Assembly: GCA_965248435.1 (NCBI GenBank)
Contig: OZ252100.1
Coordinates: 3,936,001 to 4,000,000 of the forward strand
Length of the DNA stretch: 64,000 nt
Reading direction: 5' to 3'
DNA from: Candidatus Latescibacterota bacterium
GTDB taxonomy: Bacteria > Latescibacterota > UBA2968 > GCA-2709665
Below, in pieces: positions 495 through 63,633 of the stretch. The notes below the pieces were generated by a model. It saw nothing but the letters and a program-made list of their open reading frames with translations. It was not told the DNA's origin and did not search any database. Both the position numbers and the translations under genes were made by a program. The stretch's first letter is position 1. Every line of letters begins with the position of its first letter.

Positions 495-554
495 TTTACA
501 AAGGCTCTTCACCAAATTCCGGGGAGGGTGGGGGATTTCGAGGCAAATACAGAC

Positions 555-1609
555 CCTGAGTTCAATAAGGAAGTGCAACACTTAGGGTAGCAACTGTCCT
601 ATCCTAAGTGTATGGGAAACAATTACAAGCATCTTACGATAGACGAACGCGAGCAGATTGCGCTTTGTCGAGCCACTGGTGCAAGCCTTAGAGATATTGC
701 CAAGGCCCTTGACCGGAGCGCCAGCACGATTTCAAGAGAGTTGAAACGTAATCCGTCCCCGATAGCTGAGAGTTACTCGGGCCTCCAGGCTCACAGAAGG
801 GCTGAGAAACGTAAGCGGGAGGCCGGCAAGCGGAAACGGCTGAAGAATCCGGTTATCCGGCGATATGTCGAGACCAAACTCAAGCAAGGATGGTCTCCCG
901 AGTTGATCGCTGGGAGGCTTCCCGAGGAGCGTCCGAGCGCGGGTATCAGCCACGAAGCCATCTACCAGTATATCTACGATCCAAAGGTGCACAAGCAGCG
1001 GGATCTGGTTGCTTGCTTATCCCGAGCTCACAAAAAACGAAAGCCGCGGTGGCATACCCGAAAACACCGGGAAAGCCACATTCCAGGCCGTATTTCGATC
1101 GATCGACGTCCCCGTTACATCGAAAAACGGAAACAACCTGGCCACTGGGAATCCGACACCATCATCTCTCGTGAGAGCAAACAGGCCGTTGGCGCTTGTC
1201 TTGAGCGATCGTCGAGATACCTACACCTGGCTAAGCTGGCAAAGAACGGACCCTCGGAGGTCGCCGAAGCGATTAATCGACGCCTTGGGCGACATCCTCC
1301 CCACATGAGGAAGAGCATCACATATGACAACGGATCCGAAAACGGCCAACATCAACGGGTCAACGAGGTGCTTGGCACCAAATCCTATTTCTGCAAACCG
1401 TTCCACAGCTGGGAGCGAGGCGCTGTGGAAAACGCTATCGGTCTGGTCCGCAGATACCTCCCCAAGAAGACAGACTTCTCAAAGGTCAGCAAACACGAGT
1501 TAAAGAAAATTCAGAACCGGATCAACAACCGACCAAGAAAATGTCTTAACTTCAAAACACCAGCTGAAGTCTTCAAGTCCAAGTGTTGCACTTAGTCATT
1601 GAATCCAGC
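555..1609 (+). mobile_element. IS30-family insertion sequence, copy 1 (1055 bp)
   Basis: Imperfect terminal IRs CCTGAGTTCAATAAGGAAGTGCAACACTT / GCTGGATTCAATGACTAAGTGCAACACTT; 3-bp TSD GAC (552-554, 1610-1612). Confidence 0.95.
612..1595 (+). CDS. IS30-family transposase
   Basis: N-terminal HTH (RSASTISRELKRN), WSPELIAG, and DDE motifs GHWESDT / TYDNGSE / WERGAVEN. Confidence 0.97.
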   Translation: MGNNYKHLTIDEREQIALCRATGASLRDIAKALDRSASTISRELKRNPSPIAESYSGLQAHRRAEKRKREAGKRKRLKNPVIRRYVETKLKQGWSPELIAGRLPEERPSAGISHEAIYQYIYDPKVHKQRDLVACLSRAHKKRKPRWHTRKHRESHIPGRISIDRRPRYIEKRKQPGHWESDTIISRESKQAVGACLERSSRYLHLAKLAKNGPSEVAEAINRRLGRHPPHMRKSITYDNGSENGQHQRVNEVLGTKSYFCKPFHSWERGAVENAIGLVRRYLPKKTDFSKVSKHELKKIQNRINNRPRKCLNFKTPAEVFKSKCCT

Positions 1610-1988
1610 GACATGATTCTTGGTCACCAAGCGTTCGCCTCCACCCCACCCAACATCCATGCCTCCGGCGGCCTACTTTTCTTGTCTCGCCACAAGAAAA
1701 GTAGGCAAAAGAAAGGCTCCGCTCAGGCGCCGCGGGGCTCGGGCCGCGGCACCTTACCCTCAGTGGAAAAAACGATCACGGCAGGAAGGCCAAATCCTCA
1801 CCACGTGCTCACGATCACTGAGGAACCAATCCGCTGGGAGGAGAAATCCACTCCTTGCAAGGTAAGTCGCACACCGCGGCCCTGACGGACTTGAGTGATA
1901 CAGTTCGCAAGTTCCAAGACCCTTCACAAATCGGCCAGTTCTACAATTAGAGCACATTACCTTAGCCCCCAACATTTGACGAAGAACC

Positions 1989-2122
1989 TTTCCAAAGGGG
2001 GGACATTGCTCTAAATGATGTGGATTCTTTATTCAGAAAGCTAATTCTTCCCCCTTTGAAAAAGCATGTCCCGAGCTTGCCGAGGGAGGGGATTGAGGGG
2101 GATTTCAAGATGCATCACTGCA
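1989..2122. repeat. Palindromic C/G-tract intergenic repeat (REP/REPIN-like family 1), right part
   Basis: TTTCCAAAGGGGGG-spacer-CCCCCTTTGAAAAAG...GGGGATTGAGGGGGATTTCAAGATGCATCACTGCA; spacer nearly identical to the 40595-40655 region. Confidence 0.8.
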
Positions 2123-2246
2123 GGGGAGTCGCACACCGCGGCCCTGATGGTTTCACCCGATGCATTTGGCGACCTTCAGGATCGCGGGCAAGTCGGCGAT
2201 TCTACGAATAGAATTCAGTACCAGACCCAACATTTGACGAAGAACT
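2119..2246 (-). mobile_element. Truncated left-end fragment of the ISL3-ended element (copy E)
   Basis: CCCAACATTTGACGAAGAAC (left IR, reverse complement) plus conserved block GAGTCGCACACCGCGGCCCTGA. Confidence 0.75.
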
Positions 2247-6398: not shown

Positions 6399-6460
6399 AA
6401 ATCCCCCCTGCCCCCCTTTGGAAAAGGGGGATTGAGGGGGATTTCAGAATGCATCACTGC
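6399..6460. repeat. REP-like family 1, compact unoccupied copy
   Basis: AAATCCCCCCTGCCCCCCTTTGGAAAAGGGGGATTGAGGGGGATTT hairpin followed by the CAGAATGCATCACTGC tail. Confidence 0.8.
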
Positions 6461-6533
6461 ACACAGCGCAAGGGACGGGCGCAGCAAAAGGGCTGAATTC
6501 TTCCGCCCATCTTGTGCTCGCTGTGGGACCTGC

Positions 6534-7481: not shown

Positions 7482-8804
7482 ATGTCGCGAGAGACCATCG
7501 AAGCCAGATACCGCGAGCTGACGCCGACGTCCCGTCAGATGTTCGAGGACGGTCGATCGGTGAACGCGGGCGCCGCCAAGGGCGCCTATTACTTCGCACC
7601 CTACCCGATCACGCTCCGTCGGGGAAAAGCGTGTGTGCTCGAAGACGTGGACGGCAGGTCCTACGTCGACTTCTCGAACCACCACACCGCGCAGGTATTG
7701 GGGCACAACCATCCTGCGATCCTCGACGCCGTTAAGCGGCAGTTGGCCGATGGCATCGCGCTTGGAGCCCCGACGGGCGTCGAGACCCGGCTGGCTGAGA
7801 TGATGTGTGAGCGCGTGCCTTCGGTCGATCGCATCCGTTTCGTCAACTCCGGGACCGAAGCCACGCTGCACGCCATCCGGCTCGCGAGATGCTTCACCGG
7901 CAGGCCGAAAGTCGCGAAGTTCGAAGGCGGCTACCACGGCAGCCACGACGCCGTCGAAATCAGCGTGGCTCCGCCGCTGGAGTCCGCGGGCGAAGTCTCG
8001 GAGCCCAACGCCGTTCCCGGCGCAGGAGGCATGGCGCCACACGCCCACGAAGAGACGGTTGTTCTGCCTTACAACGACGAGGAGAGCGTCGAGCGACTGT
8101 TGTCACGCCACCGCGACGAACTGGCGTGTGTGATCCTCGATCCAAAGGCAGGCATCATCCCGATCCGGCACGAGTTCATTCGGAGGGTGCGTGAGATCAC
8201 CGAGGAACTCGGCATCCTGCTGATCCTCGACGAAGTCGTGAGTATCCGTCTGGCGGAGGGAGGCTTCCAGAGCCAGGTGGGGGTCAGGCCCGACCTGACC
8301 TGCTTCGGCAAGATGATCGGCGGCGGGTTTCCCATCGGAGCCTTCGGGGGGCGAGCGGACATTATGGACCTGGTGGACAACTCCGGCGGGTCTCCACCTG
8401 TTTGGCAGAGCGGGACTCACAGCAGTCACGCCGTGGCGATGGCCGCCGGGATCGCCACGCTCGAGACCTTGACGGACGAGGCTTATGCGCATCTGAACCG
8501 CCTTGGGGATCGGCTGAAGGCCGGCCTGGAAGGTTTGTTCGCCGACCGCGGTGTTACTGCGCAGGTCGCCACGATAGGATCCTTGTTCAGCATCAGCTTC
8601 GGCATCGACCGGCTGAATGACTATCGCGACCTGGCCCGGTCGGACAAAGCGATGGTGCACGCCGTGTTCCTGTCTCTGCTCAACCAGGGCTACTTCCCGG
8701 GGAAGGGACTGAACATGTGCGCAATCAGTCTCCCGACCCGGGACGATCACGTGGACGGCCTGGTTTCAGCCGTCGGAAACGCCCTCGACGAGGCTGCCTC
8801 ATAG
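7482..8804 (+). CDS. Class III PLP aminotransferase (glutamate-1-semialdehyde aminomutase-like)
   Basis: FVNSGTEA, FEGGYHG, LILDEV and PDLTCFGKMIGGG (PLP lysine). Confidence 0.92.
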   Translation: MSRETIEARYRELTPTSRQMFEDGRSVNAGAAKGAYYFAPYPITLRRGKACVLEDVDGRSYVDFSNHHTAQVLGHNHPAILDAVKRQLADGIALGAPTGVETRLAEMMCERVPSVDRIRFVNSGTEATLHAIRLARCFTGRPKVAKFEGGYHGSHDAVEISVAPPLESAGEVSEPNAVPGAGGMAPHAHEETVVLPYNDEESVERLLSRHRDELACVILDPKAGIIPIRHEFIRRVREITEELGILLILDEVVSIRLAEGGFQSQVGVRPDLTCFGKMIGGGFPIGAFGGRADIMDLVDNSGGSPPVWQSGTHSSHAVAMAAGIATLETLTDEAYAHLNRLGDRLKAGLEGLFADRGVTAQVATIGSLFSISFGIDRLNDYRDLARSDKAMVHAVFLSLLNQGYFPGKGLNMCAISLPTRDDHVDGLVSAVGNALDEAAS

Positions 8805-8907
8805 GGCGTCCAGGTCAAACGTCCACCAGACGGTATGAATTGTTCATCATTTTATGACCCTTAGATGCTTGTGCCTCTTACCCTACTTTTCTTGTGTGGG
8901 TCGATGG

Positions 8908-9480
8908 TTGACATGGAAACAAATCCCCCCTACCCCCCTTTTCCAAAGGTTCTTCTCCAAATGTTGGGGTTAAGGTAATATGCTCTATTGTAGAACTCGC
9001 TGACTTGCCGGCGGCCCTGGGACTCTCGAAATGCATCGCTCAAAGTGATCAGGGCCGCGGTGTGCGACTCCTATGCAACCTCGTTCTTTCACCTCCCACG
9101 CGGTTAGGGCCTCTGGTCCGGTCCCATAGTGGACGTCAAGCGGGGCAGGAGTCCCGCCCTGATTGCCGCCACCGTCCTTTCCATTGAGGGTGAGGTGCCG
9201 CGGCCGAGCCCCCGCGGCGTTTGAGCGGCGCCCTTCTTTTGTCTACTTTTCTTGTGGCGAGACAAGAAAAGTAGACCGCCGGAGGCTTGGGGTTCTGGGG
9301 TGGGGCGAACAGATTAGGGAGCAACGAGAGATAGCCACTTTTTCCTCTTGCCCTCCCCTAGATTCGGTGAAGAGCCTTTCCAAAGGGGGAAGGTTACTCT
9401 TGCTGAAAGAGTACCCATTCAGAAAATAGATTCTTCCACCTTTCCTAAAGGGGGATTAAGGGGATTTCAAAATGCATCAC
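8908..9480. repeat. REP-like family 1 copy hosting element B
   Basis: TTGACATGGAAACAAATCCCCCC... at left and GGGGGATTAAGGGGATTTCAAAATGCATCAC at right. Confidence 0.75.
8948..9376 (+). mobile_element. Non-autonomous ISL3-ended element, copy B (429 bp)
   Basis: Ends GGTTCTTCTCCAAATGTTGGGG and CCCCTAGATTCGGTGAAGAGCC; perfect 8-bp TSD TTTCCAAA (8940-8947, 9377-9384). Confidence 0.9.
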
Positions 9481-9718
9481 AATCTTTTCTCGCCCGCACG
9501 TCCTTGTATCGCACCACCGGCTATAATGCCATCTGGCATCTTGCCAACTTCGGCTTCGTTGTCCGGCTGGATGACGCCTACATTTTTCCTCGATCCCATC
9601 CTGAGGGCCACCACTCACGCCCGCAAATACCGTCCTGTAGAATGAATCACTACGACCCCGTTTCTCTGGATAAAGCCGATCTATTCGAACTCGAACGTGC
9701 GTACAAGAAGGGGATAAC

Positions 9719-10708
9719 GTGATGAAGATCGGGACTCGCATCAGTCCGGACTGGCTGAATCGACCGAAGGACTTCCAGTTCCTCAAGCAGATCGGCGTCG
9801 ATGTGGTGGACATCACTCTGGACATCTGTCCCGCTTACAAGGAGACCGGACGGCTGAGCAGGGAGGGGGTCGAGCGCGTGGCGGAGGTCGTCGACAGGGC
9901 AGGCCTCAAGGTCGAACGGGCGAATTCGCTCAGCCGCTACTTCCGGTCCGCCTTCCTGGGGGGTCCCGAAGTCGAGCAGGAGATCGACAACCTGGTCCAT
10001 AACATCGGGCTGTGCGGCGAGTTCGGATTCCCGGTCGTGGGGGTGCAGTGTTTCCAGGCGGGGCAGCTCGCGAAGACCGACGAGCGTCTCTACAGCTGGG
10101 TCGAGGGTCGGGGAGGGTATCAGCACCGGAAGGTGGATCTGCGAGAAGCGCTCGACAGGCCCCTGTTGGAGGCGTCACCGAGCCACGAGGAGCTCTGGGA
10201 GAGGACCTTGGAGATCTACCGCGCCGCCATCCCGGCCGCTGAGGAGGCCGGCGTCAAAATCGCGATGCACGGGAACGATCCACCCGTTCCGAGCATCAAC
10301 GGCGTCGCACAAATCCTCTACGACTTTGATGCGTTCGATCGGCTGTTTTCGGAGGTGCCGTCCGACCATAACGGGATGACGTTCTGTGTGGGAACACGCT
10401 ACGAGTCCGGCCAGGACGTGTTCGAGGGGATCCGTCGGTTCGGCGAGAAGGGGAAGATCTTCCACGTCCACTTTCGGAACGTGAAGGGGACGATTCCCGC
10501 TACAGGAGGCTACCAGGAGGTGATTCCGGACAGCGGGGACCTGAACATGTTCGAGGTCGCGAAGGCCCTGCACGATATCGCATACGAGGGCGCGATCGAT
10601 TACGATCACATCATGAAGCTCGCGACCGACGGTCCCGAAGGGCGTGAGTACATCGCGTTCTGTGTCGGACAGATGAAGGGGTATCTGGATGCCATAAGAG
10701 CAGCATGA
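9719..10708 (+). CDS. Mannonate dehydratase (UxuA)-like protein
   Basis: AIPAAEEAGVKIAMHGNDPP, GMTFCVGT, IFHVHFRNVKG and YDH motifs. Confidence 0.85.
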   Translation: MMKIGTRISPDWLNRPKDFQFLKQIGVDVVDITLDICPAYKETGRLSREGVERVAEVVDRAGLKVERANSLSRYFRSAFLGGPEVEQEIDNLVHNIGLCGEFGFPVVGVQCFQAGQLAKTDERLYSWVEGRGGYQHRKVDLREALDRPLLEASPSHEELWERTLEIYRAAIPAAEEAGVKIAMHGNDPPVPSINGVAQILYDFDAFDRLFSEVPSDHNGMTFCVGTRYESGQDVFEGIRRFGEKGKIFHVHFRNVKGTIPATGGYQEVIPDSGDLNMFEVAKALHDIAYEGAIDYDHIMKLATDGPEGREYIAFCVGQMKGYLDAIRAA

Positions 10709-31308: not shown

Positions 31309-33291
31309 GTGGCCAGCAGCCAGAAACTAGAGCAGAAGGGTCTCTACCCGAAGCCGGATGCCGGCGCCTCGGTGAGCTTCGGGACAGTGGTGACCGTCCT
31401 TGTGGTGATCGCGGCGGGCGTGATCTGGGCCGAATGGACCGCCTTCTACCTCCGGGCGTCGCGGCTGACCCGCAGCCACTTCCCGATGGCCCTCTTCTTC
31501 CCGTTCCTGACGGCGGCCGTCCTGAATATGCTGCTGAACCGGGTCAGGCCAGGATGGGGGCTCTCCCGGACCGAACTCCTGGTGGTGATGGGGGCCGGGT
31601 TGGTGGCCATGGCCGTGCCGTTCGAAGGGATTGTGGGCCACCTGATCGGGATCTCCGCGGGGTTCTTCTACTTTGCCGCGCCGGAAAACGGATGGATACG
31701 CTACCTGAACGACCTCGTCCCCGGCTGGATGGTCACGCAAGACGTGGGGAACGCGACGACGTGGTTCTACGAAGGTCTCCCGCAGGGCCAGATGCCGCCC
31801 GTTGCGGCCTGGCTGACGCCCCTTTTCTGGTGGACCTGTCTGATCGGGGGCATGGCCTTTGCGGTCTTCTGCCTGGTGGTGATGCTCCGGAAGCAGTGGG
31901 TGGAGCACGAGCGGCTGACCTACCCCATGGTCGAAGTGGGTCAGATGCTGTCGGAGACGGAACCGGGCGGGCGGCTGCCGGTGCTTCTCCACGCCCGAAT
32001 GTTCTGGGTCGGGTTCGGGCTGGTTATGGCGCTCAAGCTGTGGAACATACTCTCCTACTTCACCCCGGCGTTTCCCGAGATTCCGTTCGAAACGGGCACC
32101 TTCGAGCCCCTCACGGACTTCCCCTCACTCCCTCAACGCATCAGCTTCTACGCCATCGGGTTCGGCTACTTCGCCCGAAAGGACGTGCTTTTCAGCGTCT
32201 GGTTCTTCATCCTGCTGACGGGGTGCGAGGTCTTCGCCTTCAACCGGCTCGGCTACCCGCTGGGGGCAGCGGGCACGCACTGGGAGAGTGAAGTGCTGAG
32301 ATGGCAGGGTGTAGGGGCGCTGTTGTTCCTGGCCGGTTGGAGCCTCTGGATGGCCCGGCGGCACCTCCGGGCGGTCTGGCGCAAGGCCCTGCAACCGAAC
32401 TCGGCGACTGATGACAGCGGGGAACTCCTCTCCTACCGCACGGCCGTCTTCGGTCTTGTGGGATCGCTTGTGTTCGTGGGCGCCTGGCTGCACGCGGCGG
32501 GGATGGAGCTCTGGGTCGTGCTCACGTTTCTTTCGGCGTCGCTCCTCATCCCTCTGGGCCTCGCAAGGGTGGTCGCCGAGGTCGGCCTGGCCTATGTCTA
32601 CTACCGGGTCCATCCTTACGATTTTGTGCTGCAGATGATGGGCACCCGCCTGATGGGGCCAGCGAGCGCGACCGCGGTCGCGACGATGGGGGCGCTCAGC
32701 AGCGGGGGGCTCAAGAGCGGCAAGGGCTTCCTGCTTCCGGCGTTCACCCAGGCAGCGAAGGCCGTGGACGGCCTCGTCACCCCCAGGCGGATCGCGTGGG
32801 TCATCTGCCTGGGGCTCGGCGTTGGATTCGCCATCTCCCTGGCCGACACTCTGTTTCTGGGGTATCGCTACGGGGCCTACAACCTGAGGGCCCACCTGGT
32901 GTGGGTCTCCAAATACGCATTCAACCAGGCAGTCTCCTCCATCCGGAACCCCATGCCGATGGGGGGAAACGGGCGCGCGATGTGGGCCGGGATGGGCGCG
33001 GCGGTGATGGCGGCGCTGACGCTCGTGCGCTACCGGCTGCCCTGGTGGCCGCTGCACCCGATCGGGCTGGCCGTACAGGGTAACTACGGGGTGACCAAGA
33101 CGGGGCAGTCGATCCTTCTGGTCTGGGCGATCAAGTCCGTGGTCCTGCGCCTCGGAGGGGTCGCCCTCTACGACCGGGGCAAACCCTTCTTCGTCGGGCT
33201 GCTGGCCGCACAGGCGCTGAGCGCGGCTCTGGTGTCGGGCATCGACTTTCTTTGGTTTCCGCTGCACGGGCACAATGTCCACAACTATTGA
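31309..33291 (+). CDS. DUF6785/DUF6784-like polytopic membrane protein (putative transporter)
   Basis: Many TM segments; LSRTELL, YFAAPENGW, RKQWVEHERLTYPM, SYRTA, WWPLHPIG and KPFFVGL. Confidence 0.8.
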   Translation: MASSQKLEQKGLYPKPDAGASVSFGTVVTVLVVIAAGVIWAEWTAFYLRASRLTRSHFPMALFFPFLTAAVLNMLLNRVRPGWGLSRTELLVVMGAGLVAMAVPFEGIVGHLIGISAGFFYFAAPENGWIRYLNDLVPGWMVTQDVGNATTWFYEGLPQGQMPPVAAWLTPLFWWTCLIGGMAFAVFCLVVMLRKQWVEHERLTYPMVEVGQMLSETEPGGRLPVLLHARMFWVGFGLVMALKLWNILSYFTPAFPEIPFETGTFEPLTDFPSLPQRISFYAIGFGYFARKDVLFSVWFFILLTGCEVFAFNRLGYPLGAAGTHWESEVLRWQGVGALLFLAGWSLWMARRHLRAVWRKALQPNSATDDSGELLSYRTAVFGLVGSLVFVGAWLHAAGMELWVVLTFLSASLLIPLGLARVVAEVGLAYVYYRVHPYDFVLQMMGTRLMGPASATAVATMGALSSGGLKSGKGFLLPAFTQAAKAVDGLVTPRRIAWVICLGLGVGFAISLADTLFLGYRYGAYNLRAHLVWVSKYAFNQAVSSIRNPMPMGGNGRAMWAGMGAAVMAALTLVRYRLPWWPLHPIGLAVQGNYGVTKTGQSILLVWAIKSVVLRLGGVALYDRGKPFFVGLLAAQALSAALVSGIDFLWFPLHGHNVHNY

Positions 33292-33305
33292 CCTGGAGGG
33301 AATCG

Positions 33306-34799
33306 ATGGAACCGCTCCTCAGCTACGCACGCGTCTTCGCCGGAGCGTCACGGTATGATGAAGCCGGCAATGCGCACCCCTTTCATGCACCGGAAGGGAT
33401 TTGTCTGAAGCTTACGCCTGCCGAGAAGTCGGACGTCGTGGTGGCTATGGACCGCCCGTGGGAAAGGGAGGTCATTGGCCACGTCACAGTTTACCGTGAT
33501 CAAGGCAAGTACCGGATGTGGTACGGGGCGCGCAGCGGGCCCCTTCCAGACGAGCGGTTCACGTGCTACGCTGAAAGCGAAGACGGATTTCAGTGGGAGA
33601 AACCGGAGCTGGGCCTGTATGAGTTCGAAGGGTCAAAGAAAAACAACATCTGCCTTGTAGGCCCCTATGCCATGCAAGGCTCCGTGTTCATCGACGAGAA
33701 CCCTGATGCGACGGAACGCTACAAGAGGCTTGGTCATTGTCCGCAGTGGTACGACGAAGAGGGTAAGGAGATTTCGAACAAAGTAGGCCTGGCGCGGTGG
33801 AAGGAGCTGGGCGAACAGGGCTACGACCGTGACGAGGTGAGGCAGATGGTGCGGTTGGTAGGCACGCACCGGGCAATGACGTCTCCGGACGGAATCCACT
33901 GGACAGTGCTAAAAGAACCCATTTTTGAGGGCTTCTGCGACACTCAAACGGTGGCGTATTTCGATGTGGAAAAGAAGAAGTACATCGGCTACTTCCGGAC
34001 CACTATCGACGGCCGGCGGGCGGTGGGGATGTCGGAGACCGAGGACTTCTCGGCGTGGCCGGTACCAAAGCCGATATTCGCGCCGGATGCGCTGGATGGT
34101 CCGAGTGACTCGTTTTACACGAATGCGTACTCCCGCTATCCGGGAGCGGACCTGCATCTGATGTTTCCGGCCGTGTTCCACCAGGTTACCGACAATACAG
34201 ACATCCAACTCGCCGTGAGTAGTGACGGGCGGAATTGGTCGAGGCCGTCCAGGGAAAGCATACTTGATTGTGGGGATTTGGAAAGTGGCGAACCTGGTGG
34301 AGTCTACGTCAACGCTGCTCTTTTCACCCTGCCTGATGGTAGATTTGCGATTCCGTACTTGGGACGGAGATCACGCCATCATCAAGTGTACTACACAACC
34401 ATCACCAAAGATGCGCAGGTCCGGCTTGCGCTGTGGCCCGAGCACCGACTCGGCGGCATACGGGCCGATAATCGCGGGGAGTTTACGCTCGAGAGTCGGA
34501 TGATCTCCGGCGGGGAGCTTGTGCTGAACTGCCAGGCGGACAGAGGCGGATGGATTCGGGCTGCGCTCTACGAGAACATCCCGCACCCCCCGCAGCCGGG
34601 GGAGCCGCTTCCCGGCTATTCCTTCGAAGATTGCGAACCGGTTTCGGGAAATCATTTTCGGCAGCCGATGAAGTGGAAGGGCAGCTCCGATCTGTCGTCT
34701 CTGTCGGGGAAGAAGATCAACCTCCGGTTTCAGATGAACCGGGCGATTCTGTATGCGCTTGAGCTCGGAAAAGCGACCGACGAACGTCACAGTACGTGA
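33306..34799 (+). CDS. Uncharacterised beta-propeller glycoside hydrolase-like protein (GH32/43 clan-like), paralog A1
   Basis: RPWE, YRMWY, CYAESEDGFQWEKP, SPDGIHW and SSDGRNWSR repeats, plus a C-terminal domain. Confidence 0.75.
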   Translation: MEPLLSYARVFAGASRYDEAGNAHPFHAPEGICLKLTPAEKSDVVVAMDRPWEREVIGHVTVYRDQGKYRMWYGARSGPLPDERFTCYAESEDGFQWEKPELGLYEFEGSKKNNICLVGPYAMQGSVFIDENPDATERYKRLGHCPQWYDEEGKEISNKVGLARWKELGEQGYDRDEVRQMVRLVGTHRAMTSPDGIHWTVLKEPIFEGFCDTQTVAYFDVEKKKYIGYFRTTIDGRRAVGMSETEDFSAWPVPKPIFAPDALDGPSDSFYTNAYSRYPGADLHLMFPAVFHQVTDNTDIQLAVSSDGRNWSRPSRESILDCGDLESGEPGGVYVNAALFTLPDGRFAIPYLGRRSRHHQVYYTTITKDAQVRLALWPEHRLGGIRADNRGEFTLESRMISGGELVLNCQADRGGWIRAALYENIPHPPQPGEPLPGYSFEDCEPVSGNHFRQPMKWKGSSDLSSLSGKKINLRFQMNRAILYALELGKATDERHST

Positions 34800-34821
34800 A
34801 GAATGAAACAATAATCAATAT

Positions 34822-35841
34822 GCTGGATTCAATGACTAAGTGCAACACTTGGACTTGAAGACTTCAGCTGGTGTTTTGAAGTTAAGACATTTTCTTGGTC
34901 GGTTGTTGATCCGGTTCTGAATTTTCTTTAACTCGTGTTTGCTGACCTTTGAGAAGTCTGTCTTCTTGGGGAGGTATCTGCGGACCAGACCGATAGCGTT
35001 TTCCACAGCGCCTCGCTCCCAGCTGTGGAACGGTTTGCAGAAATAGGATTTGGTGCCAAGCACCTCGTTGACCCGTTGATGTTGGCCGTTTTCGGATCCG
35101 TTGTCATATGTGATGCTCTTCCTCATGTGGGGAGGATGTCGCCCAAGGCGTCGATTAATCGCTTCGGCGACCTCCGAGGGTCCGTTCTTTGCCAGCTTAG
35201 CCAGGTGTAGGTATCTCGACGATCGCTCAAGACAAGCGCCAACGGCCTGTTTGCTCTCACGAGAGATGATGGTGTCGGATTCCCAGTGGCCAGGTTGTTT
35301 CCGTTTTTCGATGTAACGGGGACGTCGATCGATCGAAATACGGCCTGGAATGTGGCTTTCCCGGTGTTTTCGGGTATGCCACCGCGGCTTTCGTTTTTTG
35401 TGAGCTCGGGATAAGCAAGCAACCAGATCCCGCTGCTTGTGCACCTTTGGATCGTAGATATACTGGTAGATGGCTTCGTGGCTGATACCCGCGCTCGGAC
35501 GCTCCTCGGGAAGCCTCCCAGCGATCAACTCGGGAGACCATCCTTGCTTGAGTTTGGTCTCGACATATCGCCGGATAACCGGATTCTTCAGCCGTTTCCG
35601 CTTGCCGGCCTCCCGCTTACGTTTCTCAGCCCTTCTGTGAGCCTGGAGGCCCGAGTAACTCTCAGCTATCGGGGACGGATTACGTTTCAACTCTCTTGAA
35701 ATCGTGCTGGCGCTCCGGTCAAGGGCCTTGGCAATATCTCTAAGGCTTGCACCAGTGGCTCGACTGCTTGTAATTGTTTCCCATACACTTAGGATAGGAC
35801 AGTTGCTACCCTAAGTGTTGCACTTCCTTATTGAACTCGGG
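34822..35841 (-). mobile_element. IS30 copy 2 (1020 bp) with a 35-bp deletion frameshifting the transposase
   Basis: Same IRs as copy 1; TSD TAT; lacks AAAGCGCAAT...CGTAAGA at 35764/35765 relative to copy 3. Confidence 0.93.
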
Positions 35842-35950
35842 TATCCAATATCGAATATCCAATGATCAAGGGCGATGAGAAACGCGTGGTTCACGAGTCG
35901 GTGAGCCCAATGCAACAATAGAGATTTGGTCCAAAAACCGGAGGGAATCG

Positions 35951-37444
35951 ATGGAACCGCTACTCAGCTATGCACGCGTCTTCGCCGGAGCGTCACGGTA
36001 TGATGAAGCAGGCAATGCGCACCCCTTTCATGCACCGGAAGGGATTTGCCTGAAGCTTACGCCTGCCGAGAAGTCGGACGTCGTGGTGGCGATGGACCGC
36101 CCGTGGGAAAGGATGATGATTTGCCACGTGACAGTGCGCCGTGATCAAGGCAAGTACCGGATGTGGTACGGGGCACGCAGCGGGCCCCCTCCTGACGAGC
36201 AGTTCTTGTGCTACGCCGAGAGCGAAGACGGATTTCAGTGGGAGAAACCGGAGCTGGGCCTGTATGAGTTCGAAGGGTCCAAGAAGAACAACATCTGTCT
36301 TGTAGGCCCCCATGCCATGCGAGGCTCCGTGTTCATCGACGAGAACCCTGAGGCCGAGGAACGGTACAAGAAGCTCGGTCATTCTCCCCGGTGGTACGAC
36401 GAAGAGGGCAAGGAGATCTCGAACAAAGAAGGCCTGGCGCGGTGGAAGGAACTGGGCGAGCAGGGCTACAACCGTGACGAGGTGAGGCAGAAGGTGCGTT
36501 TGGTGGGCACGCACCGGGCAATGACGTCTTCGGACGGAATCCACTGGACAGTGTTGAAAGAACCCATTTTTGAGGGCTTCTGCGACTCCCAAACGGTGGC
36601 GTATTTCGACGTCGAAAAGAAGAAGTACATCGGTTACTTCCGGACCACAATCGACGGCCGGAGGGCGGTGGGAATGTCGGAGACCAAAGACTTCTCGGCG
36701 TGGCCGGTACCAAAACCGATATTCGCGCCGGATGCGCTGGATGGTCCGAGTGACTCGTTATACACGAACGCGTACTCCCGCTATCCGGGAGCGGACTTGC
36801 ATCTGATGTTTCCGGCCGTGTTCCACCAGGTTACCGACAATACAGACATCCAGCTCGCCGTGAGTAGTGACGGGCGGAATTGGTCGAGGCCGTCCAGGGC
36901 AAGCATACTTGATTGTGGGGATTCGGAAAGCGGCGATGGCGGTGGAGTCTACGCCTCCGCTGCTCTCTTCATCTTGCCTGATGGTAGATTTGCGATTCCG
37001 TACCTGGCACAGAGATCACGCCATCATGAAGCGTTCTACCCAACCACCGACAAGGAAACACAGCTCCGTCTTGCGTTGTGGCCCGAGCATCGGCTCGGAG
37101 GCATACGGGCCGACAATCGCGGGGAGTTTACGCTCGAGAGTCGGATGATCGCCGGAGGGGAGCTTGTGCTGAACTCCCAGGCGGACAGAGGCGGATGGAT
37201 TCGGGCTGCGTTCTACGAGAACATCCCGCACCCCCCGGAGCCGGGGGAGCCGCTTCCCGGCTATTCCTTCGAAGATTGCGAACCGGTTTCGGGAAATCAT
37301 TTTCGGCAGCCGATGAAGTGGAAGGGCAGCTCCGATCTGTCGTCTCTGTCGGGGAAGAAGATCAACGTCCGGTTTCAGATGAACCGGGCGACCCTGTATG
37401 CGCTTGAGCTCGGAAAAGCGACCGACGAACGTCACAGTACGTGA
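35951..37444 (+). CDS. Beta-propeller hydrolase-like protein, paralog A2
   Basis: Colinear 497-aa near-duplicate of A1. Confidence 0.75.
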   Translation: MEPLLSYARVFAGASRYDEAGNAHPFHAPEGICLKLTPAEKSDVVVAMDRPWERMMICHVTVRRDQGKYRMWYGARSGPPPDEQFLCYAESEDGFQWEKPELGLYEFEGSKKNNICLVGPHAMRGSVFIDENPEAEERYKKLGHSPRWYDEEGKEISNKEGLARWKELGEQGYNRDEVRQKVRLVGTHRAMTSSDGIHWTVLKEPIFEGFCDSQTVAYFDVEKKKYIGYFRTTIDGRRAVGMSETKDFSAWPVPKPIFAPDALDGPSDSLYTNAYSRYPGADLHLMFPAVFHQVTDNTDIQLAVSSDGRNWSRPSRASILDCGDSESGDGGGVYASAALFILPDGRFAIPYLAQRSRHHEAFYPTTDKETQLRLALWPEHRLGGIRADNRGEFTLESRMIAGGELVLNSQADRGGWIRAAFYENIPHPPEPGEPLPGYSFEDCEPVSGNHFRQPMKWKGSSDLSSLSGKKINVRFQMNRATLYALELGKATDERHST

Positions 37445-37531
37445 AAAAAGAAACAATATCCAATAATCAAGGGCGATAAGAAACGCCTGGTTGACATTCG
37501 CCGGCGGCAACCCATAGATGGAGTTCCATTC

Positions 37532-38992
37532 GTGTCCGATCCCGATTGCCCAAACATCGTCCTGCTGATGACGGATCAGCAGAAGGCGTCGGCCGTCGGT
37601 TGCTACGGCAACCGTCACGTGCCGTCGCCGTTTCAGGATCGCATGGCGGCCGAAGGTATTGCGTTCACACAATGCTTCGCGAACTCATCGGTGTGTACGC
37701 CTTCCCGGGCCTCGATCATGACCGGGGTCAATCCGCTGGTGCATCAGTCTACGGCCGTGCAACATCGCGTGCCTTGGAACCTGCCGCAGTTTCCCGAACT
37801 GCTCAGCTGGCACGGCTATTTAAATGCCGCTTTCGGCCATTGTGAAGGTCCGCGCGGACTCGACCGCGGTTATCACCGGCAGAAGGATGGCAGCTCGGTG
37901 GGGCCGCTGCTCAATGCCAAGCGCACGTGGATGGACGCCGGCCGGGCCGACGTCGCGTGGGGGTACGGCCCCGTCGATTTGCCGGTCGAGGCGTCGCACG
38001 CCGCGCTGTTGACCGATGAAGCGATCCGAGCCCTGCGGGAGGCGAAGCATGCCGAGGCGCCATTCTTTCTGCAGCTATCCTTCGACGATCCGCATCAGCC
38101 TTATTGCGCGCCGCGTCCCTTCGATACGCTCGTCGATCCGATGGCCGTCGACCTTCCGCCACGCAAACCCACCGCAGGCCGGCCGGCGTGGCAGGAGAAG
38201 GTTGCGCGCGAGTGCGGGTCGCATCTCGCGTCGGACATGGACATGCGCAAAGCCATAAGCCACTACTACGGCATGATCGCGCATGCCAATGCCCAGATGG
38301 AACGGCTGTACGACGCCATGGATGCGCTTGGCCAACTGGACAACACCTGGTTCATCCTTACCTCCGACCACGGCGATTTCACCGGCGAGAAGAACCTCTA
38401 CGCCAAGTGCGAAACGACCTACGAATGTCTGCTCCGGGTACCCCTGATCATCCGACCTCCGGATTCGGTGCAAATGAAGAGGGGCATGCGTGTCGAGCAC
38501 CTCACGCAACTTGTCGACCTCATGCCCACCGTGCTCGGCCTCGCCGGCGTCAACGCCCCGCATTATATGCAGGGATACGATCTCATAGAATGGATCGCGC
38601 ATGGCGCAACGAAGCCGCTGCGCGACACGGCCTTCGCACAAGTGGGCGCCTACGAAGGCGATCTCAAAACCACCTGGCCCGGCGGGATGCCCGAGTCGGG
38701 GCGACATCCTTCCCTCGTGCAGCACGCACGCACCCTTGGCATCGCCTACACCCGGGATCCGGACTATGGCGATGAAGCCTACGACCTGCGCGCCGATCCT
38801 CATGAGTTGGACAACCTGCTCAATCCCGGCAAAGCCGCCCCGCCCGCGGAAGTGGAGGACCTGCGGGGCCGGCTCGATGGATTCGAAGCCACGTGCCTTG
38901 CGCTGCGTGACGAGTTGAAAATTCGCCCCGGGGACCGCGGGTATCACGAAGGCACCAGATGGCTCGAAGCGCAGGCACGTAGTTATCCGTGA
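37532..38992 (+). CDS. Sulfatase-like hydrolase
   Basis: PNIVLLMTDQQ, CTPSRASIMTG, DPHQP and SDHGD. Confidence 0.9.
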   Translation: MSDPDCPNIVLLMTDQQKASAVGCYGNRHVPSPFQDRMAAEGIAFTQCFANSSVCTPSRASIMTGVNPLVHQSTAVQHRVPWNLPQFPELLSWHGYLNAAFGHCEGPRGLDRGYHRQKDGSSVGPLLNAKRTWMDAGRADVAWGYGPVDLPVEASHAALLTDEAIRALREAKHAEAPFFLQLSFDDPHQPYCAPRPFDTLVDPMAVDLPPRKPTAGRPAWQEKVARECGSHLASDMDMRKAISHYYGMIAHANAQMERLYDAMDALGQLDNTWFILTSDHGDFTGEKNLYAKCETTYECLLRVPLIIRPPDSVQMKRGMRVEHLTQLVDLMPTVLGLAGVNAPHYMQGYDLIEWIAHGATKPLRDTAFAQVGAYEGDLKTTWPGGMPESGRHPSLVQHARTLGIAYTRDPDYGDEAYDLRADPHELDNLLNPGKAAPPAEVEDLRGRLDGFEATCLALRDELKIRPGDRGYHEGTRWLEAQARSYP

Positions 38993-39048
38993 TTTTGTCG
39001 TAGATTACCGGACCAAACGAGATTTGGTCCGAAAACCGGAGGGAATCG

Positions 39049-40662: not shown

Positions 40663-41984
40663 GGTTCTTCGTCAAATGTTGGGGTAGAAAATAGACGAGA
40701 CAACGGCATCCGACCTATCTTCAGAGTATCCTCTATAAACCTGAAGGTAGAAAGGAGAGCGCGTTGTCTCAGGTGCAAAGTATATCCTTACTGGGTAGGT
40801 GGCAAGGGTTTGTGGTAGTTGGCATTCAACGTCAGGAAGCAGACGTTGTTGGAGTCGAGTTACGTCCCAAGACAGGCCGCCTTCCTCGGTGTGGTGGTTG
40901 CGGGAAGAAGGCGTACCGGGTTCATGATTGGGCAGTGCGATTTGCTCAGGATTTGCCGATCTGGGGGTCTCGAACCAGGCTGATCGTGCACTCCCGGCGC
41001 GTCCTATGTCCCCGATGTGGCTGCCGGACGGAGCAGATTGACTGGCTGGATCGGTATTCACGGGTCACTCAACGCCTGGCTGAAAGTGTTGTTCGATTGT
41101 GCGAAGTCCTGCCCATCCAGCACGTGGCACAGCACTATGGGATGAGCTGGAATACCGTGAAGCGCATTCACAAGACCCATCTCCAGCAAGAGCTGGAACC
41201 GCCGGATTTTGCCAGGGTCACGGTGATCGGCATGGACGAATTTGCGATCCAAAAGGGCCATCGCTACGCCACAGTGATTGTTGACATGGAGACCAAGCGT
41301 GTCCTATGGGTGGGTCGCGGCCGAAGTCGAGAGGACATCCGCCCGTTTTTCCACCTCCTTGGAGAAGAAGGCTGCAAGCAACTTGAGGCCGTGGCGATGG
41401 ACATGAACGGTGCCTACGAAGAGGAGGTGCGATCCCATTGTCCGGATGTGGACATCATCTATGACCTGTATCACGTTAAAGCCAAGTACAACCGCGACGT
41501 CGTCGAGCGAGTACGCATCGACGAACTGGGTCGGGTGCGCGGTGGCCGACCCGATCGCAAAGTGACTCAGAACCAACGGTGGTTGCTCCTGCGCAGCAAA
41601 GCAAATGTCACGAGCAAAGAAGACAGAGTGTCGCTAAGAGAATTGCTTTCTGCAAACAAACGCCTCTACACGGTATACCTCCTCAAAGAGGATCTCAATC
41701 ATCTCTGGTCTTATCGATCCAGAGCTGCGGCCAACAGATTCTGGAATCAGTGGTATCGACGCGCCATCTACAGCAAGATCGAGCCACTCAAGAAATTCGC
41801 ACGCAATCTGAAGACGTATATGCCAGGAATCCTAGCTCACTGTGACTATCCCATCGGGACAAGCCTGATTGAGGGAATTAACAACAAAATCAAGGTCATC
41901 AAGCGGATGGCATATGGCTTCAGGGATGATAATTATTTCTTTCTTAGAATCCGCCACGCCTTCCCCGGAAATCGGTGATGAACC
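40663..41984 (+). mobile_element. ISL3-family insertion sequence, complete (1322 bp)
   Basis: Ends GGTTCTTCGTCAAATGTTGGGG and CCCCGGAAATCGGTGATGAACC; 8-bp TSD TTGTTAAA (40655-40662, 41985-41992). Confidence 0.96.
40764..41978 (+). CDS. ISL3 transposase
   Basis: Zn finger CGGCG...CPRCG; IGMDEF, VAMDM, DLYHV and EGINNKIK. Confidence 0.97.
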   Translation: MSQVQSISLLGRWQGFVVVGIQRQEADVVGVELRPKTGRLPRCGGCGKKAYRVHDWAVRFAQDLPIWGSRTRLIVHSRRVLCPRCGCRTEQIDWLDRYSRVTQRLAESVVRLCEVLPIQHVAQHYGMSWNTVKRIHKTHLQQELEPPDFARVTVIGMDEFAIQKGHRYATVIVDMETKRVLWVGRGRSREDIRPFFHLLGEEGCKQLEAVAMDMNGAYEEEVRSHCPDVDIIYDLYHVKAKYNRDVVERVRIDELGRVRGGRPDRKVTQNQRWLLLRSKANVTSKEDRVSLRELLSANKRLYTVYLLKEDLNHLWSYRSRAAANRFWNQWYRRAIYSKIEPLKKFARNLKTYMPGILAHCDYPIGTSLIEGINNKIKVIKRMAYGFRDDNYFFLRIRHAFPGNR

Positions 41985-42147
41985 TTGTTAAAGGGGGATT
42001 GAGGGGGATTTCAAGATGCATCACTGCAGTGATGGTTAGGCGCGATATTTTTTGCGAGTTTCACAGACAGCATGCAACTTCAAGGTGGATTGTTCTTATT
42101 CGCCCCAAATGAGAAGAATCGCTTAATTTACGATCCAATATCGAATA

Positions 42148-43202
42148 GCTGGATTCAATGACTAAGTGCAACACTTGGACTTGAAGACTTCAGCTGGTGT
42201 TTTGAAGTTAAGACATTTTCTTGGTCGGTTGTTGATCCGGTTCTGAATTTTCTTTAACTCGTGTTTGCTGACCTTTGAGAAGTCTGTCTTCTTGGGGAGG
42301 TATCTGCGGACCAGACCGATAGCGTTTTCCACAGCGCCTCGCTCCCAGCTGTGGAACGGTTTGCAGAAATAGGATTTGGTGCCAAGCACCTCGTTGACCC
42401 GTTGATGTTGGCCGTTTTCGGATCCGTTGTCATATGTGATGCTCTTCCTCATGTGGGGAGGATGTCGCCCAAGGCGTCGATTAATCGCTTCGGCGACCTC
42501 CGAGGGTCCGTTCTTTGCCAGCTTAGCCAGGTGTAGGTATCTCGACGATCGCTCAAGACAAGCGCCAACGGCCTGTTTGCTCTCACGAGAGATGATGGTG
42601 TCGGATTCCCAGTGGCCAGGTTGTTTCCGTTTTTCGATGTAACGGGGACGTCGATCGATCGAAATACGGCCTGGAATGTGGCTTTCCCGGTGTTTTCGGG
42701 TATGCCACCGCGGCTTTCGTTTTTTGTGAGCTCGGGATAAGCAAGCAACCAGATCCCGCTGCTTGTGCACCTTTGGATCGTAGATATACTGGTAGATGGC
42801 TTCGTGGCTGATACCCGCGCTCGGACGCTCCTCGGGAAGCCTCCCAGCGATCAACTCGGGAGACCATCCTTGCTTGAGTTTGGTCTCGACATATCGCCGG
42901 ATAACCGGATTCTTCAGCCGTTTCCGCTTGCCGGCCTCCCGCTTACGTTTCTCAGCCCTTCTGTGAGCCTGGAGGCCCGAGTAACTCTCAGCTATCGGGG
43001 ACGGATTACGTTTCAACTCTCTTGAAATCGTGCTGGCGCTCCGGTCAAGGGCCTTGGCAATATCTCTAAGGCTTGCACCAGTGGCTCGACAAAGCGCAAT
43101 CTGCTCGCGTTCGTCTATCGTAAGATGCTTGTAATTGTTTCCCATACACTTAGGATAGGACAGTTGCTACCCTAAGTGTTGCACTTCCTTATTGAACTCG
43201 GG
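42148..43202 (-). mobile_element. IS30 copy 3 (1055 bp, intact)
   Basis: Same IRs; TSD ATA (42145-42147, 43203-43205). Confidence 0.95.
42162..43145 (-). CDS. IS30-family transposase
   Basis: Protein identical to 612..1595. Confidence 0.97.
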   Translation of the reverse strand: MGNNYKHLTIDEREQIALCRATGASLRDIAKALDRSASTISRELKRNPSPIAESYSGLQAHRRAEKRKREAGKRKRLKNPVIRRYVETKLKQGWSPELIAGRLPEERPSAGISHEAIYQYIYDPKVHKQRDLVACLSRAHKKRKPRWHTRKHRESHIPGRISIDRRPRYIEKRKQPGHWESDTIISRESKQAVGACLERSSRYLHLAKLAKNGPSEVAEAINRRLGRHPPHMRKSITYDNGSENGQHQRVNEVLGTKSYFCKPFHSWERGAVENAIGLVRRYLPKKTDFSKVSKHELKKIQNRINNRPRKCLNFKTPAEVFKSKCCT

Positions 43203-53689: not shown

Positions 53690-54338
53690 TTGACATTGAG
53701 AGAAATCCCCCCTGCCCCCCTTTGTAAAGGTTCTTCGCCGAATGTTGGGGTTAGGCCATCAAGCTCTATTTGTAGAACTCGCCAGCTAGCCAGCGTCCCT
53801 GTAACTCAGGAGATGCATAGCTCAAAGCCATCAGGGCCGCGGTGTGCGACTTACCGTGCAACAAGGGGATTTCACCTCCCGGCGGGTTGGTTTTCAGTGA
53901 TCGCGAGCGTGTGGTGAGGATGTGGCCCACCTGCCATGATTGTTTTTTCCACTGAGGGTAAGGTGCCGCGGCCCGAGCCCCCCCGGCGTTTGAGGGGCGC
54001 CTTTCTTTTGCCTACTTTTCTTGTGGCGTGACAAGAAAAGTAGGCCGCCGGAGGCATGGTCTTATTTCTGGTTCTCGCGATACAACCCACCCCGCCCCTT
54101 CGGGGCACCCCTCCCAGGAGGGGACGGATTGTGCAGCCCCGGAGACATCGTCATTGCAGAGCGGAGCAAACGGCTTTGGAGTCAGAGAACATCGTCTCGA
54201 GATACGCCACGCCTTCCCCCGGAAATCGGTGATGAACCTTTACAAAGGGGGAGGTTGCTCTTTCTGAAAGAATACCTATCCATGAATAGATTCTTCACCC
54301 TTTGGAAAGGGGGATTGAGGGGGATTTCAAAACGCATC
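53690..54338. repeat. REP-like family 1 copy hosting element C
   Basis: TTGACATTGAGAGAAATCCCCCC... at left and GGGGGATTGAGGGGGATTTCAAAACGCATC at right. Confidence 0.75.
53729..54238 (+). mobile_element. Non-autonomous ISL3-ended element, copy C (510 bp)
   Basis: Left end GGTTCTTCGCCGAATGTTGGGG; shared core; right end CGCCACGCCTTCCCCCGGAAATCGGTGATGAACC, nearly identical to the autonomous ISL3 end. Confidence 0.88.
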
Positions 54339-54406
54339 GAATCCTTTTTCCACGACACACCACAGCCCTAAATATTTTCGCCACAGTACGTTAGGAGAAA
54401 CGAATC

Positions 54407-56747: not shown

Positions 56748-56917
56748 CGCCAACTGTAGATCGAGGATATATTACCTTGCTTCGCACCACAGACACACTC
56801 CGACCTTGTGTGTGATCCCCACCCTGTTGGTCAGCGGAGAGAGTTTCACAACTTGATACTAAACAGCAACTTATATCTTTATCTCTCAGCCCGCCAACTC
56901 TGAGTTTGGGAGAAAAA

Positions 56918-63070: not shown

Positions 63071-63633
63071 AAATCCCCCTCAGTCCCCCTTTGTTAAAGG
63101 GGGAGGATTCTACTCCGGAGGTGAGTACTCTTTCAGCTAAGTAATGTTCCCCCTTTGGAAAGGTTCTTCGCCGAATGTTGGGGTTAAGGTATTAAGCTCT
63201 AATTGTAGACTCGCCCGCTTGCCGGCGTCTCTGTAACTCGCGAGATGCATCGCTCAAAGTCATCAGGGCCGCGGTGTGCGACTCCGATGCAACCTCGTTC
63301 TTTCACCTCCCACGCGGTTAGGCCCTCTGGGCCGGTCCCATAGTGGGCGTTCTGTGGGGCAGGAGTCCCGCCCTGATTGCCGCCCCCGTCCTTTCCACTG
63401 AGGGTGAGGTGCCGCGGCCCGAGCCCCCGCGGCGTTTGAGCGGCGCCCTTCTTTTGTCTACTTTTCTTGTGGCGAGACAAGAAAAGTAGACCGCCGGAGG
63501 CATGGGGTTCTTGGGTGGGGCGAACAGCCTAGGGAGCAAGGAGAGATAGCCACTTTTTTCTCGAAATCTGCTCATGACCTCCCCTAAATTCGGTGAAGAG
63601 CCTTTGGAAAAGGGGGGTAGCGGGGATTTGAAT
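63071..63633. repeat. REP-like family 1 copy (reverse orientation) hosting element D
   Basis: AAATCCCCCTCAGTCCCCCTTTGTTAAAGGGGG ... CCCCCTTTGGAAA[element]TTTGGAAAAGGGGGG..GGGGATTT. Confidence 0.75.
63162..63602 (+). mobile_element. Non-autonomous ISL3-ended element, copy D (441 bp)
   Basis: Ends GGTTCTTCGCCGAATGTTGGGG and CCCCTAAATTCGGTGAAGAGCC; perfect TSD TTTGGAAA (63154-63161, 63603-63610). Confidence 0.9.

Follow-up and report, generated by a model that had tools for sequence, protein, structure and literature searches.

The question raised by this locus is what kind of element carries the ends of an ISL3 insertion sequence around an interior that does not resemble one. We analyzed a window of 64,000 nucleotides (C1:3936001-4000000) from a genome of 5.67 Mb with 56.6% G+C (G000), and concentrated on element B (8948-9376), which is 429 bp long, has inverted repeats of the ISL3 type and lies between the two copies of a perfect 8-bp target duplication, TTTCCAAA. 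We consider it somewhat better than an even bet that B is a chimeric ISL3-type MITE with a captured, older folded element as its cargo, a reading in which an RNA, a triple helix and mobilization in trans would all take part. As an ISL3 MITE, B is nothing out of the ordinary; what it carries is unnamed, phylum-wide and conserved in structure.

ISL3-type ends in the window and in the genome

The preliminary description had reported four full copies (A, B, C and D) and one fragment, and a repeat finder combined with alignment located all five in the window. Besides B, the elements are the following:

503..1988, - strand: copy A, into which an IS30-like element has inserted (555-1609); flanks agree at 7/8 positions
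2119..2246, - strand: fragment, consisting of the left ISL3 end plus the core to just beyond the 5' arm of P1, where another repeat module cuts it off
40663..41984, + strand: autonomous ISL3 of 1322 bp, with a 404-aa transposase (DDE_Tnp_ISL3, E 6.9e-66)
53729..54238, + strand: copy C, with flanks TTTGTAAA and TTTACAAA that agree at 6/8 positions and are mutually reverse complementary
63162..63602, + strand: copy D, with target duplication TTTGGAAA, 8/8

The insertion sequence inside copy A measures 1055 bp and has a 327-aa ORF with HTH_38 and rve domains; a second, identical copy lies at 42148-43202. Copy C has an additional repeat module downstream of its tail, and the autonomous ISL3 is flanked by the duplication TTGTTAAA (8/8). 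Within B, we distinguish these features:

8940..8947, + strand: left copy of the target site duplication TTTCCAAA, 8/8 against 9377-9384
8948..8969, + strand: left ISL3-type inverted repeat (GGTTCTTC...GGGG), with a match in the left terminus (40663) of the autonomous ISL3
9052..9062, + strand: 5' arm of helix P1; 9053-9062 pairs with 9196-9205, the last two pairs being U.G and G.U
9063..9195, + strand: variable domain closed by P1, which contains helices (ii) and (v) of the preliminary description
9196..9205, + strand: 3' arm of P1, pairing with 9053-9062
9212..9228, + strand: hairpin P2 (helix iii of the preliminary description), CCGC/GCGG with a 9-nt loop
9216-9232, + strand: alternative hairpin, followed by CTTCTTTT; terminator-like in a scan
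9234..9240, + strand: tract H (TTCTTTT), which mirrors pyrimidine run W in the 5' arm of P3 and is the proposed Hoogsteen strand
9241..9276, + strand: hairpin P3 (helix iv of the preliminary description), 15 bp with the loop GGCGAG
9247-9253, + strand: pyrimidine run W of P3
9264-9270, + strand: purine run R of P3
9277..9286, + strand: conserved tail CGCCGGAGGC, which is CGCCGAAGGC in other lineages
9355..9376, + strand: right ISL3-type inverted repeat, the inverted partner of the left end
9377..9384, + strand: right copy of the target site duplication TTTCCAAA

The small elements and the autonomous ISL3 agree only over the outermost ~40 bp (left) and ~36 bp (right); hence, the interior is not a deletion derivative, and the dissimilarity already pointed out in the preliminary description extends over everything but the termini. 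A genome-wide pattern search paired both ends for nine distinct small copies, a count that leaves aside C-type ends, which the right-end pattern missed. The target duplication is 8/8 in four of the nine (B, D, a copy at C1:4703475 and an A-like copy at C1:3786428), 7/8 in three and at most 3/8 in two, which are abutting pairs. The autonomous element and the MITEs have a common target, the palindrome CCCCC-TTTNNAAA-GGGGG, which itself belongs to a different repeat family; on the + strand, a scan counted 26 uninterrupted copies of it.

With its ISL3 termini, 8-bp duplication, lack of a transposase gene and autonomous partner in the genome, B has most of the attributes of a MITE (Pfam returned no family for the two ORFs that overlap its right end). 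IS-derived MITEs have the same inverted repeats, 8-bp duplication, several copies and target preference, and likewise lack a transposase. However, the interior of such a MITE arises from the IS by internal deletion, whereas that of B is a captured, independently widespread repeat with no deleted IS in it. Among the papers listed for ISL3 MITEs with secondary structure, the titles and abstracts describe no such element. Considering the common ends, the duplication length and the common target, we regard it as a sound inference that the ISL3 transposase can mobilize the ISL3-ended copies of this genome in trans.

The core and its distribution

A profile search of the genome gave 130 matches, 52 of them long; positions 3-41 of the profile also matched full IS copies. 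Only 20 of the 52 begin with the ISL3 left end; the other 32 begin within the core, beside other repeat modules, so that a core of ~270 nt stands there without ISL3 ends, and the same search found 5'-truncated copies. The core also occurs without ISL3 ends in other genera. Both observations imply that it is not a feature of ISL3 and was captured, and they overturn the view of the preliminary description that the core belongs to an ISL3-ended family. To judge from these sequence comparisons, the core is older than its ISL3 ends: two ISL3 inverted repeats and an 8-bp duplication would enclose a captured non-coding element of ~230-270 nt that had already spread, in many copies, through one phylum.

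By DNA, the core is matched in 33 of 41 related genomes, over ~155 nt within the genus and mainly over the last ~65-85 nt in other genera. An exact-pattern scan of species genomes gave 44 loci, and the records are mostly from this phylum: 40 are titled 'Candidatus Latescibacterota', three 'Gemmatimonadota bacterium' (all from one MAG) and one 'uncultured bacterium'. R1, a covariance model with 99 positions built from the 3' module, had matches in 61 of 151 genomes, a sample of mutually related members of the phylum, and scored matches per genome often number at least 27. By family, the positive genomes are:

f1: 18/18
f2: 29/30
f4: 2/2
f10: 8/13
f9: 2/6
f12: 1/1
f3: 0/64 of the genomes sampled

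The 3' module is conserved across families, with E-values down to 1e-24. The element has no match in Rfam 15, in agreement with the preliminary description, which recognized no named RNA: the whole window gave no match at the gathering score, 8900-9420 in E-value mode gave only microRNA and lncRNA noise (E ≥ 3.4), and eight loci of relatives gave only two tRNAs. The interior is neither a peptide gene nor decayed coding sequence (the preliminary description had named decayed sequence of another ISL3 transposase as a refutation): three-base periodicity is absent (0.88/0.77/0.88), and one of eight copies checked has stops in all six frames.

The copies are intergenic and follow no orientation rule with respect to neighboring genes. 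For 61 copies, judged by crude in-house gene calls, the orientations relative to the copy are:

upstream gene same, downstream gene same: 22/61
upstream gene opposite, downstream gene opposite: 18/61
upstream gene same, downstream gene opposite: 12/61
upstream gene opposite, downstream gene same: 9/61

The upstream gene is thus co-oriented with 34 of the 61. Two co-oriented arrays were found, one of 19 copies at C1:4.956-5.037 Mb in this genome and one of 10 copies at C1:1.47-1.57 Mb in genome G018; they show no synteny, with two proteins of the first array matched at E ≤ 1e-20. Relative to GC skew, 49 of the 61 copies of this genome (37 of 45 by motif) lie in one orientation. We dropped the idea of a replication-strand bias, since it was not reproduced in G001 and G018 with sampled GC skew among the matches listed. 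Four contigs that we examined break within the repeat, and a clean empty site was not found among them.

The search for a partner protein was negative for the usual candidates. No recurrent neighbor emerged, the largest related group numbering 4 among 150 neighboring proteins. RAYT-like Y1 genes are present, yet no 3' module flanks them as in a RAYT/REPIN system, and a single query with a 168-aa Y1 protein found it in 27 of 151 genomes, in none of 20 from genus g6 and in none of 13 from family f10. An omega-RNA of TnpB or a PATE of IS200/IS605 was rejected, as PF07282 has no match in the genome and the IS200-like copies have different flanks. SINE-like retro-mobilization was set aside with no match to the reverse transcriptase family PF00078 in G000, and so was IS110, whose four copies adjoin no core copy among those listed.

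Structured intergenic repeats of other bacteria are among the closest known systems. Those called bcr1 (of the Bacillus cereus group), ERIC, Correia/NEMIS and REP/BIME also have many intergenic copies, predicted stable folds and mosaic structures, and are targets of insertion sequences. A review describes bcr1 and others as transcribed, with folds kept through compensatory changes, and REPs as serving as IS targets (PMC3184786). The element described here differs from bcr1, ERIC, Correia and REP in being phylum-wide across families with a 3' module conserved at E 1e-24, in its multi-part fold with a long-range helix and a mirror tract, and in having no link to RAYT. Literature searches outside subscription journals listed no paper that deals with repeats or non-coding RNAs from this phylum.

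A conserved fold with a mirrored pyrimidine tract

The plan of the element is common to all lineages. From 5' to 3' it consists of the 5' arm of P1, a variable domain of ~90 to 200 nt, the 3' arm of P1, a short linker ending in AGCC, the 4-bp hairpin P2, CGCC, a pyrimidine tract and P3, a hairpin of 13-15 bp whose 5' arm is rich in U and whose 3' arm is rich in A; in many lineages a CGCCGRAGGC tail follows P3. The element would be kept as the fold of one strand, read from the GGTTCTTC end, in which P1 would close the variable domain and be followed by P2, H, P3 and the tail. P1 is a long-range helix with arms 100-210 nt apart, and it exists in at least nine complementary versions across lineages:

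GGCCGCGGTG/TGCCGCGGCC (this genome)
GGCCGTGGCG/CGCCACGGCC
GCTTTTCCGCG/CGCGGAAAAGC
GATTTTCCGCG/CGCGGAAAATC
GGTTTTTCCGTG/CACGGAAAAACC
GGTTTTTCCACG/CGTGGAAAAACC
GGCGCGGCGC/GCGCCGCGCC
GGCGCGACGCA/TGCGTCGCGCC
GCACAGCGC/GCGCTGTGC

The preliminary description had proposed five pairings, (i) to (v), and had read their compensatory changes as a sign of a selected fold. We counted these pairings on 48 distinct near-full copies of this genome. Helix (i), GGCCGCGGTG/TGCCGCGGCC, is nearly invariant, with the terminal pairs U.G and G.U; pair (ii) is C-G in 38 copies, U-A in 8 and C.A in 2; pair (iii) is G-C in 25, C-G in 20 and something else in 3; and the outer pairs of the 15-bp hairpin (iv) covary. Pairing (v) is weak: one of its pairs holds as C-G (28 copies) or U.G (20), and its neighbor is U-A in 24 copies and an A.A mismatch in 22. 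The compensatory changes are thus real, and many more appear when other genomes are included.

In a model-fitted alignment of 98 distinct sequences, which is biased towards structure and contains register shifts in P3, paired cells amount to 88.2% against 72.5% in shuffles (0/500 shuffles as high), and both sides have changed in 16 of 19 pairs. The covariation score of these 98 sequences is 0.388 against 0.144 when shuffled (reached by 0/500), and slid partners score at most 0.195. An unfitted MAFFT alignment of 39 elements analyzed with RNAalifold recovered P1, P2 and P3 alike; here P1 has both-side changes in 9 of 10 pairs and only 2 broken cells out of 390. The G-C/C-G flip in P2 is found at 61/30 in the fitted alignment and at 27/11 in the MAFFT alignment. 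The variable domain gave no consensus helices in the MFE folds of 17 copies or in two RNAalifold runs, and it contains the conserved words UCCGUYCAGC and GCAGGSCA. Single-sequence folding energy is modestly below that of shuffles (z -2.1 on the + strand, -2.7 on the - strand). Taken on their comparative evidence, these patterns support a fold kept by selection.

The preliminary description missed a further feature, which is new here: the pyrimidine tract H before P3 is the mirror image of W, not its direct copy. The three strands (H / W / R) read as follows:

this genome: TTCTTTT / TTTTCTT / AAGAAAA
genera g2 and g3: TTCTTTTT / TTTTTCTT / AAGAAAAA
some distant genomes: TTTCTTTT / TTTTCTTT / AAAGAAAA
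g6 and g10: all T / all T / all A
one f10 genome: TTTCCTTT / TTTCCTTT / AAAGGAAA

Among 103 distinct sequences, 63 have an asymmetric W that H mirrors exactly, and these fall into four classes. Symmetric classes, which are uninformative, account for 12 sequences, and inexact mirrors for 28, of which 19 are off by one terminal T; a direct repeat of an asymmetric W was found in none of the 103. As there are just four asymmetric classes, in sequences related to one another, few independent events stand behind this rule. In distant families, H, W and R change in concert. Template switching produces inverted or direct repeats but never mirror repeats, and the mirror rule therefore argues for selection.

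The mirror of W reproduces the 5'-3' order of R, A being replaced by U and G by C, as would suit a third strand parallel to R, so that H can occupy the major groove of P3. The rule fits a candidate major-groove triple helix of U.A-U and C+.G-C triples: as the sequence pattern of a pyrimidine-motif triple helix demands, the mirror strand is kept through sequence change. H would lie parallel to R in 6-8 U.A-U triples, with C+.G-C where W has C. Between H and W lie 1-2 nt and the lower stem of P3 (4-6 bp), which gives a spacing of 5-6 nt in most classes; this segment would correspond to loop 1 of an H-type pseudoknot. In pseudoknots of that type, 1-2 nt are enough to cross the deep groove across ~6 bp, which makes the geometry plausible here. 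The triple-helix hairpin may make the 3' part of the RNA resistant to nucleases.

Known RNA triplexes, namely those of SAM-II, preQ1-II/III, the telomerase RNA pseudoknot and ENE/MALAT1, have the same U-rich third strand parallel to an A-rich strand, and in them, as would be the case here, one end of the helix is where the third strand connects with the Watson-Crick pyrimidine strand. The bacterial cases are riboswitch pseudoknots with about two canonical U.A-U triples, according to a review of RNA triple helices (PMC7583470); with 6-8 consecutive triples predicted from sequence, the present candidate is several times longer. ENE clamps a poly(A) strand, of which the present element has none; unlike these RNAs, it is a many-copy repeat, and its triplex is a prediction from sequence. 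The element also resembles H-DNA in having a homopyrimidine mirror repeat with a short spacer. However, its purine partner is on the same strand, as an inverted repeat, and a single strand can thus supply all three, something that H-DNA does not require.

Nature of the folded strand and its significance

Does the fold belong to an RNA? The preliminary description had argued for RNA from a tolerance of G-U pairs. Such tolerance is clear in P1, which has 8 G.U cells against 1 C.A cell in the 39-element MAFFT alignment, and whose terminal pairs are U.G and G.U in this genome and C-G and G-C in a sister genome. It vanishes in P3, which is Watson-Crick in 1188 of 1221 cells (97%): with both mismatch kinds scored alike, there are 2 G.T against 13 A.C, most of these A.C cells lying where the ends are over-extended, and counts of this kind on the nhmmer alignment are inflated by register shifts. 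As P3 has no excess of G.U over A.C, it cannot by itself separate RNA from DNA. The loop of P3, which on the + strand of B starts with GGCG in nearly all copies, and the G.U cells of P1 both speak for a single folded strand, and for this one. A scan of 8700-9800 for sigma-70-type promoters found no site, and no RNA run among those listed contains the stretch. We infer that the folded strand, read from the GGTTCTTC end, is RNA, and favor, from the comparisons above, a stable folded RNA module that the ISL3 transposase would move in trans in this genome. More tentatively, as a bolder reading to which we give clearly less than even chances, the core may be a new class of bacterial non-coding RNA, with tens of copies per genome in much of the Latescibacterota and an unusually long intramolecular U.A-U/C+.G-C triple helix, that travels as a passenger of ISL3 MITEs; its 3' module would then be the bacterial counterpart of the triple helices that protect 3' ends in eukaryotes and viruses.

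It is rather unlikely, in our judgment, that the fold acts instead as single-stranded DNA that an enzyme recognizes in its folded form during replication or transposition, with H, W and R forming a T.A-T/C+.G-C DNA triplex. The many copies, the absence of a gene-orientation rule and the mosaic junctions with other repeats do resemble mobile DNA, P3 is almost wholly Watson-Crick, HUH Y1 genes exist in the genome, and 49 of its 61 copies point the same way with respect to GC skew. However, this bias was not reproduced in G001 and G018 among the matches listed, TnpB has no match in the genome, and the Y1 genes lack the usual flanking copies of the repeat; the RAYT-like Y1 is moreover missing from all 20 genomes of g6 and all 13 of f10, two groups in which the element occurs. 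The known DNA recognition hairpins are, to our knowledge, smaller than a multi-helix fold of 250 nt. The tolerance of G.T in P1 is confined to the + strand, which is compatible with either RNA or DNA. A terminator or attenuator acting in cis, in which a GGCGYY..GGCGCC hairpin followed by CUUCUUUU would end transcripts and P2 and P3 would be competing or backup structures, seems to us a still poorer candidate. The scan does flag 9216-9232 with its T-rich tail, the loop positions YY vary from U to C in a manner that strengthens the alternative hairpin, and B, C and D each lie 46-131 nt downstream of a co-oriented gene. This alternative hairpin with its U tract competes with P2, and H would become the tail of the terminator; P3 is not followed by a U tract. 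Against this, the S-S covariation favors P2, the alternative in this form is missing from lineages whose P2 loop is shortened, an upstream gene is co-oriented with only 34 of 61 copies genome-wide, and a terminator could do without the conserved P1 domain and the mirror rule.

We hold it to be highly improbable that the element is a selfish repeat without a selected fold, whose hairpins were perfected by template-switch repair and gene conversion. Mutational correction of quasi-palindromes through template switching is known, P3 is a near-perfect palindrome, and the copies within a genome are similar, as this explanation would have it. Yet it does not account for P1, with arms 100-210 nt apart in nine or more complementary versions, for mirror repeats, which template switching cannot produce, for the conserved asymmetric GGCG loop, or for a 3' module conserved across families at E-values down to 1e-24. 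Least credible of all is the proposal of a long attC, a recombination site like those of integrons, as an explanation of the co-oriented arrays of 19 copies at C1:4.956-5.037 Mb and of 10 copies in G018. The arms of an attC enclose a variable region, as P1 does, and an integrase fragment (C1:4954422-4954607) adjoins the first array; however, the genes between copies are metabolic, span 1-6 kb and run in both directions, synteny between the two arrays is lacking, and inspection by eye revealed no GTTRRRY/RYYYAAC cores and an XerD-like appearance of the integrase within the G018 array.

Even as a mere DNA repeat, the element would be of use, since its covariance model provides a marker for these genomes and flags the positions at which short-read assemblies break. 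If, as we favor, the fold works as RNA, it would represent a large, unnamed family of structured RNAs from an uncultured phylum. Its triple helix would be among the longest candidates for a natural bacterial one, backed by covariation of three strands, and the elements of this genome would be a clear case of transposon ends capturing and spreading a pre-existing structured element.

Insertion target and mobile elements in the window

The ISL3 element and its MITEs both insert into a CCCCC-TTTNNAAA-GGGGG palindrome that adjoins GGGGGATTGAGGGGGATTTCAAGATGCATCAC, a separate repeat family found at the following window positions:

9441-9484, GGGGGATTGAGGGGGATTTCAAGATGCATCAC repeat
41985-42028, GGGGGATTGAGGGGGATTTCAAGATGCATCAC repeat
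54301-54344, GGGGGATTGAGGGGGATTTCAAGATGCATCAC repeat
6418-6461, GGGGGATTGAGGGGGATTTCAAGATGCATCAC repeat
2079-2122, GGGGGATTGAGGGGGATTTCAAGATGCATCAC repeat

A genome scan of the + strand found 26 uninterrupted palindromes of this type. The 8-bp flanks of MITE copy C (window 53729-54238), TTTGTAAA and TTTACAAA, do not form a direct duplication; one is the reverse complement of the other, an arrangement that could have arisen by inversion between two copies. Another MITE, copy A, is split by an IS30-like element, which is present in at least three copies within the window and encodes a 327-aa ORF with HTH_38 and rve domains:

555-1609, IS30-like copy
42148-43202, IS30-like copy
34809-35764, IS30-like copy

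Identity between two of these copies is 100% across 1055 bp; for the third it is 99% across 956 bp.

The window also contains tandemly repeated genes. Three to four paralogues of ca. 670 aa with a DUF6785 domain (56906-63097 and 63647-64000) share 70-90% DNA identity, and MITE copy D is placed after the third of them. The stretch 33252-40542 is a tandem triplication with units of ca. 2.6-3.1 kb (87-97% mutual identity), whose 497-aa ORFs matched no Pfam family.

Core arrays and chromosomal orientation

Dense arrays of co-oriented cores were found in the source genome, G000 (19 copies at C1:4.956-5.037 Mb), where a tyrosine-recombinase fragment (C1:4954422-4954607) adjoins the array, and in genome G018 (10 copies at C1:1.47-1.57 Mb). 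The genes amid the copies are unrelated, and the two arrays show no synteny with each other. Along the whole G000 chromosome, in which GC skew places the origin near 3.0 Mb and the terminus near 0.22 Mb, 49 of the 61 core copies have the same orientation relative to the skew; this bias was not reproduced in G001 and G018, for which skew was sampled and match lists were partial.

Interrupted cores and neighboring modules

Among the Y1 (HUH) genes of G000 are two RAYT-like ones, the first encoding 168 aa and the second 189 aa:

G000:C1:3752779-3753282 (locus L057, 1333-1839), first gene
Locus L059, 1453-2022, second gene

The first gene is flanked by other repeat modules, which also adjoin some core copies.

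No P3 hairpin was found close downstream of the P2 motif in 11 G000 loci:

L065, L069, L070, L072, L073, L081-L083, L088, L090 and L096, loci without a nearby P3

Profile matches revealed an insert of ca. 90 nt between P2 and P3 in many of these, parting the P3 hairpin from the pyrimidine tract H or from P2. In at least six copies (window 2119-2246 and others in G000), the core is broken off a few bases past GGTGTGCGACTCC and the module GTGATGCATCTTGAAATCCCCCTCAG... takes over, as if a fixed site within the core were the insertion point of this module.
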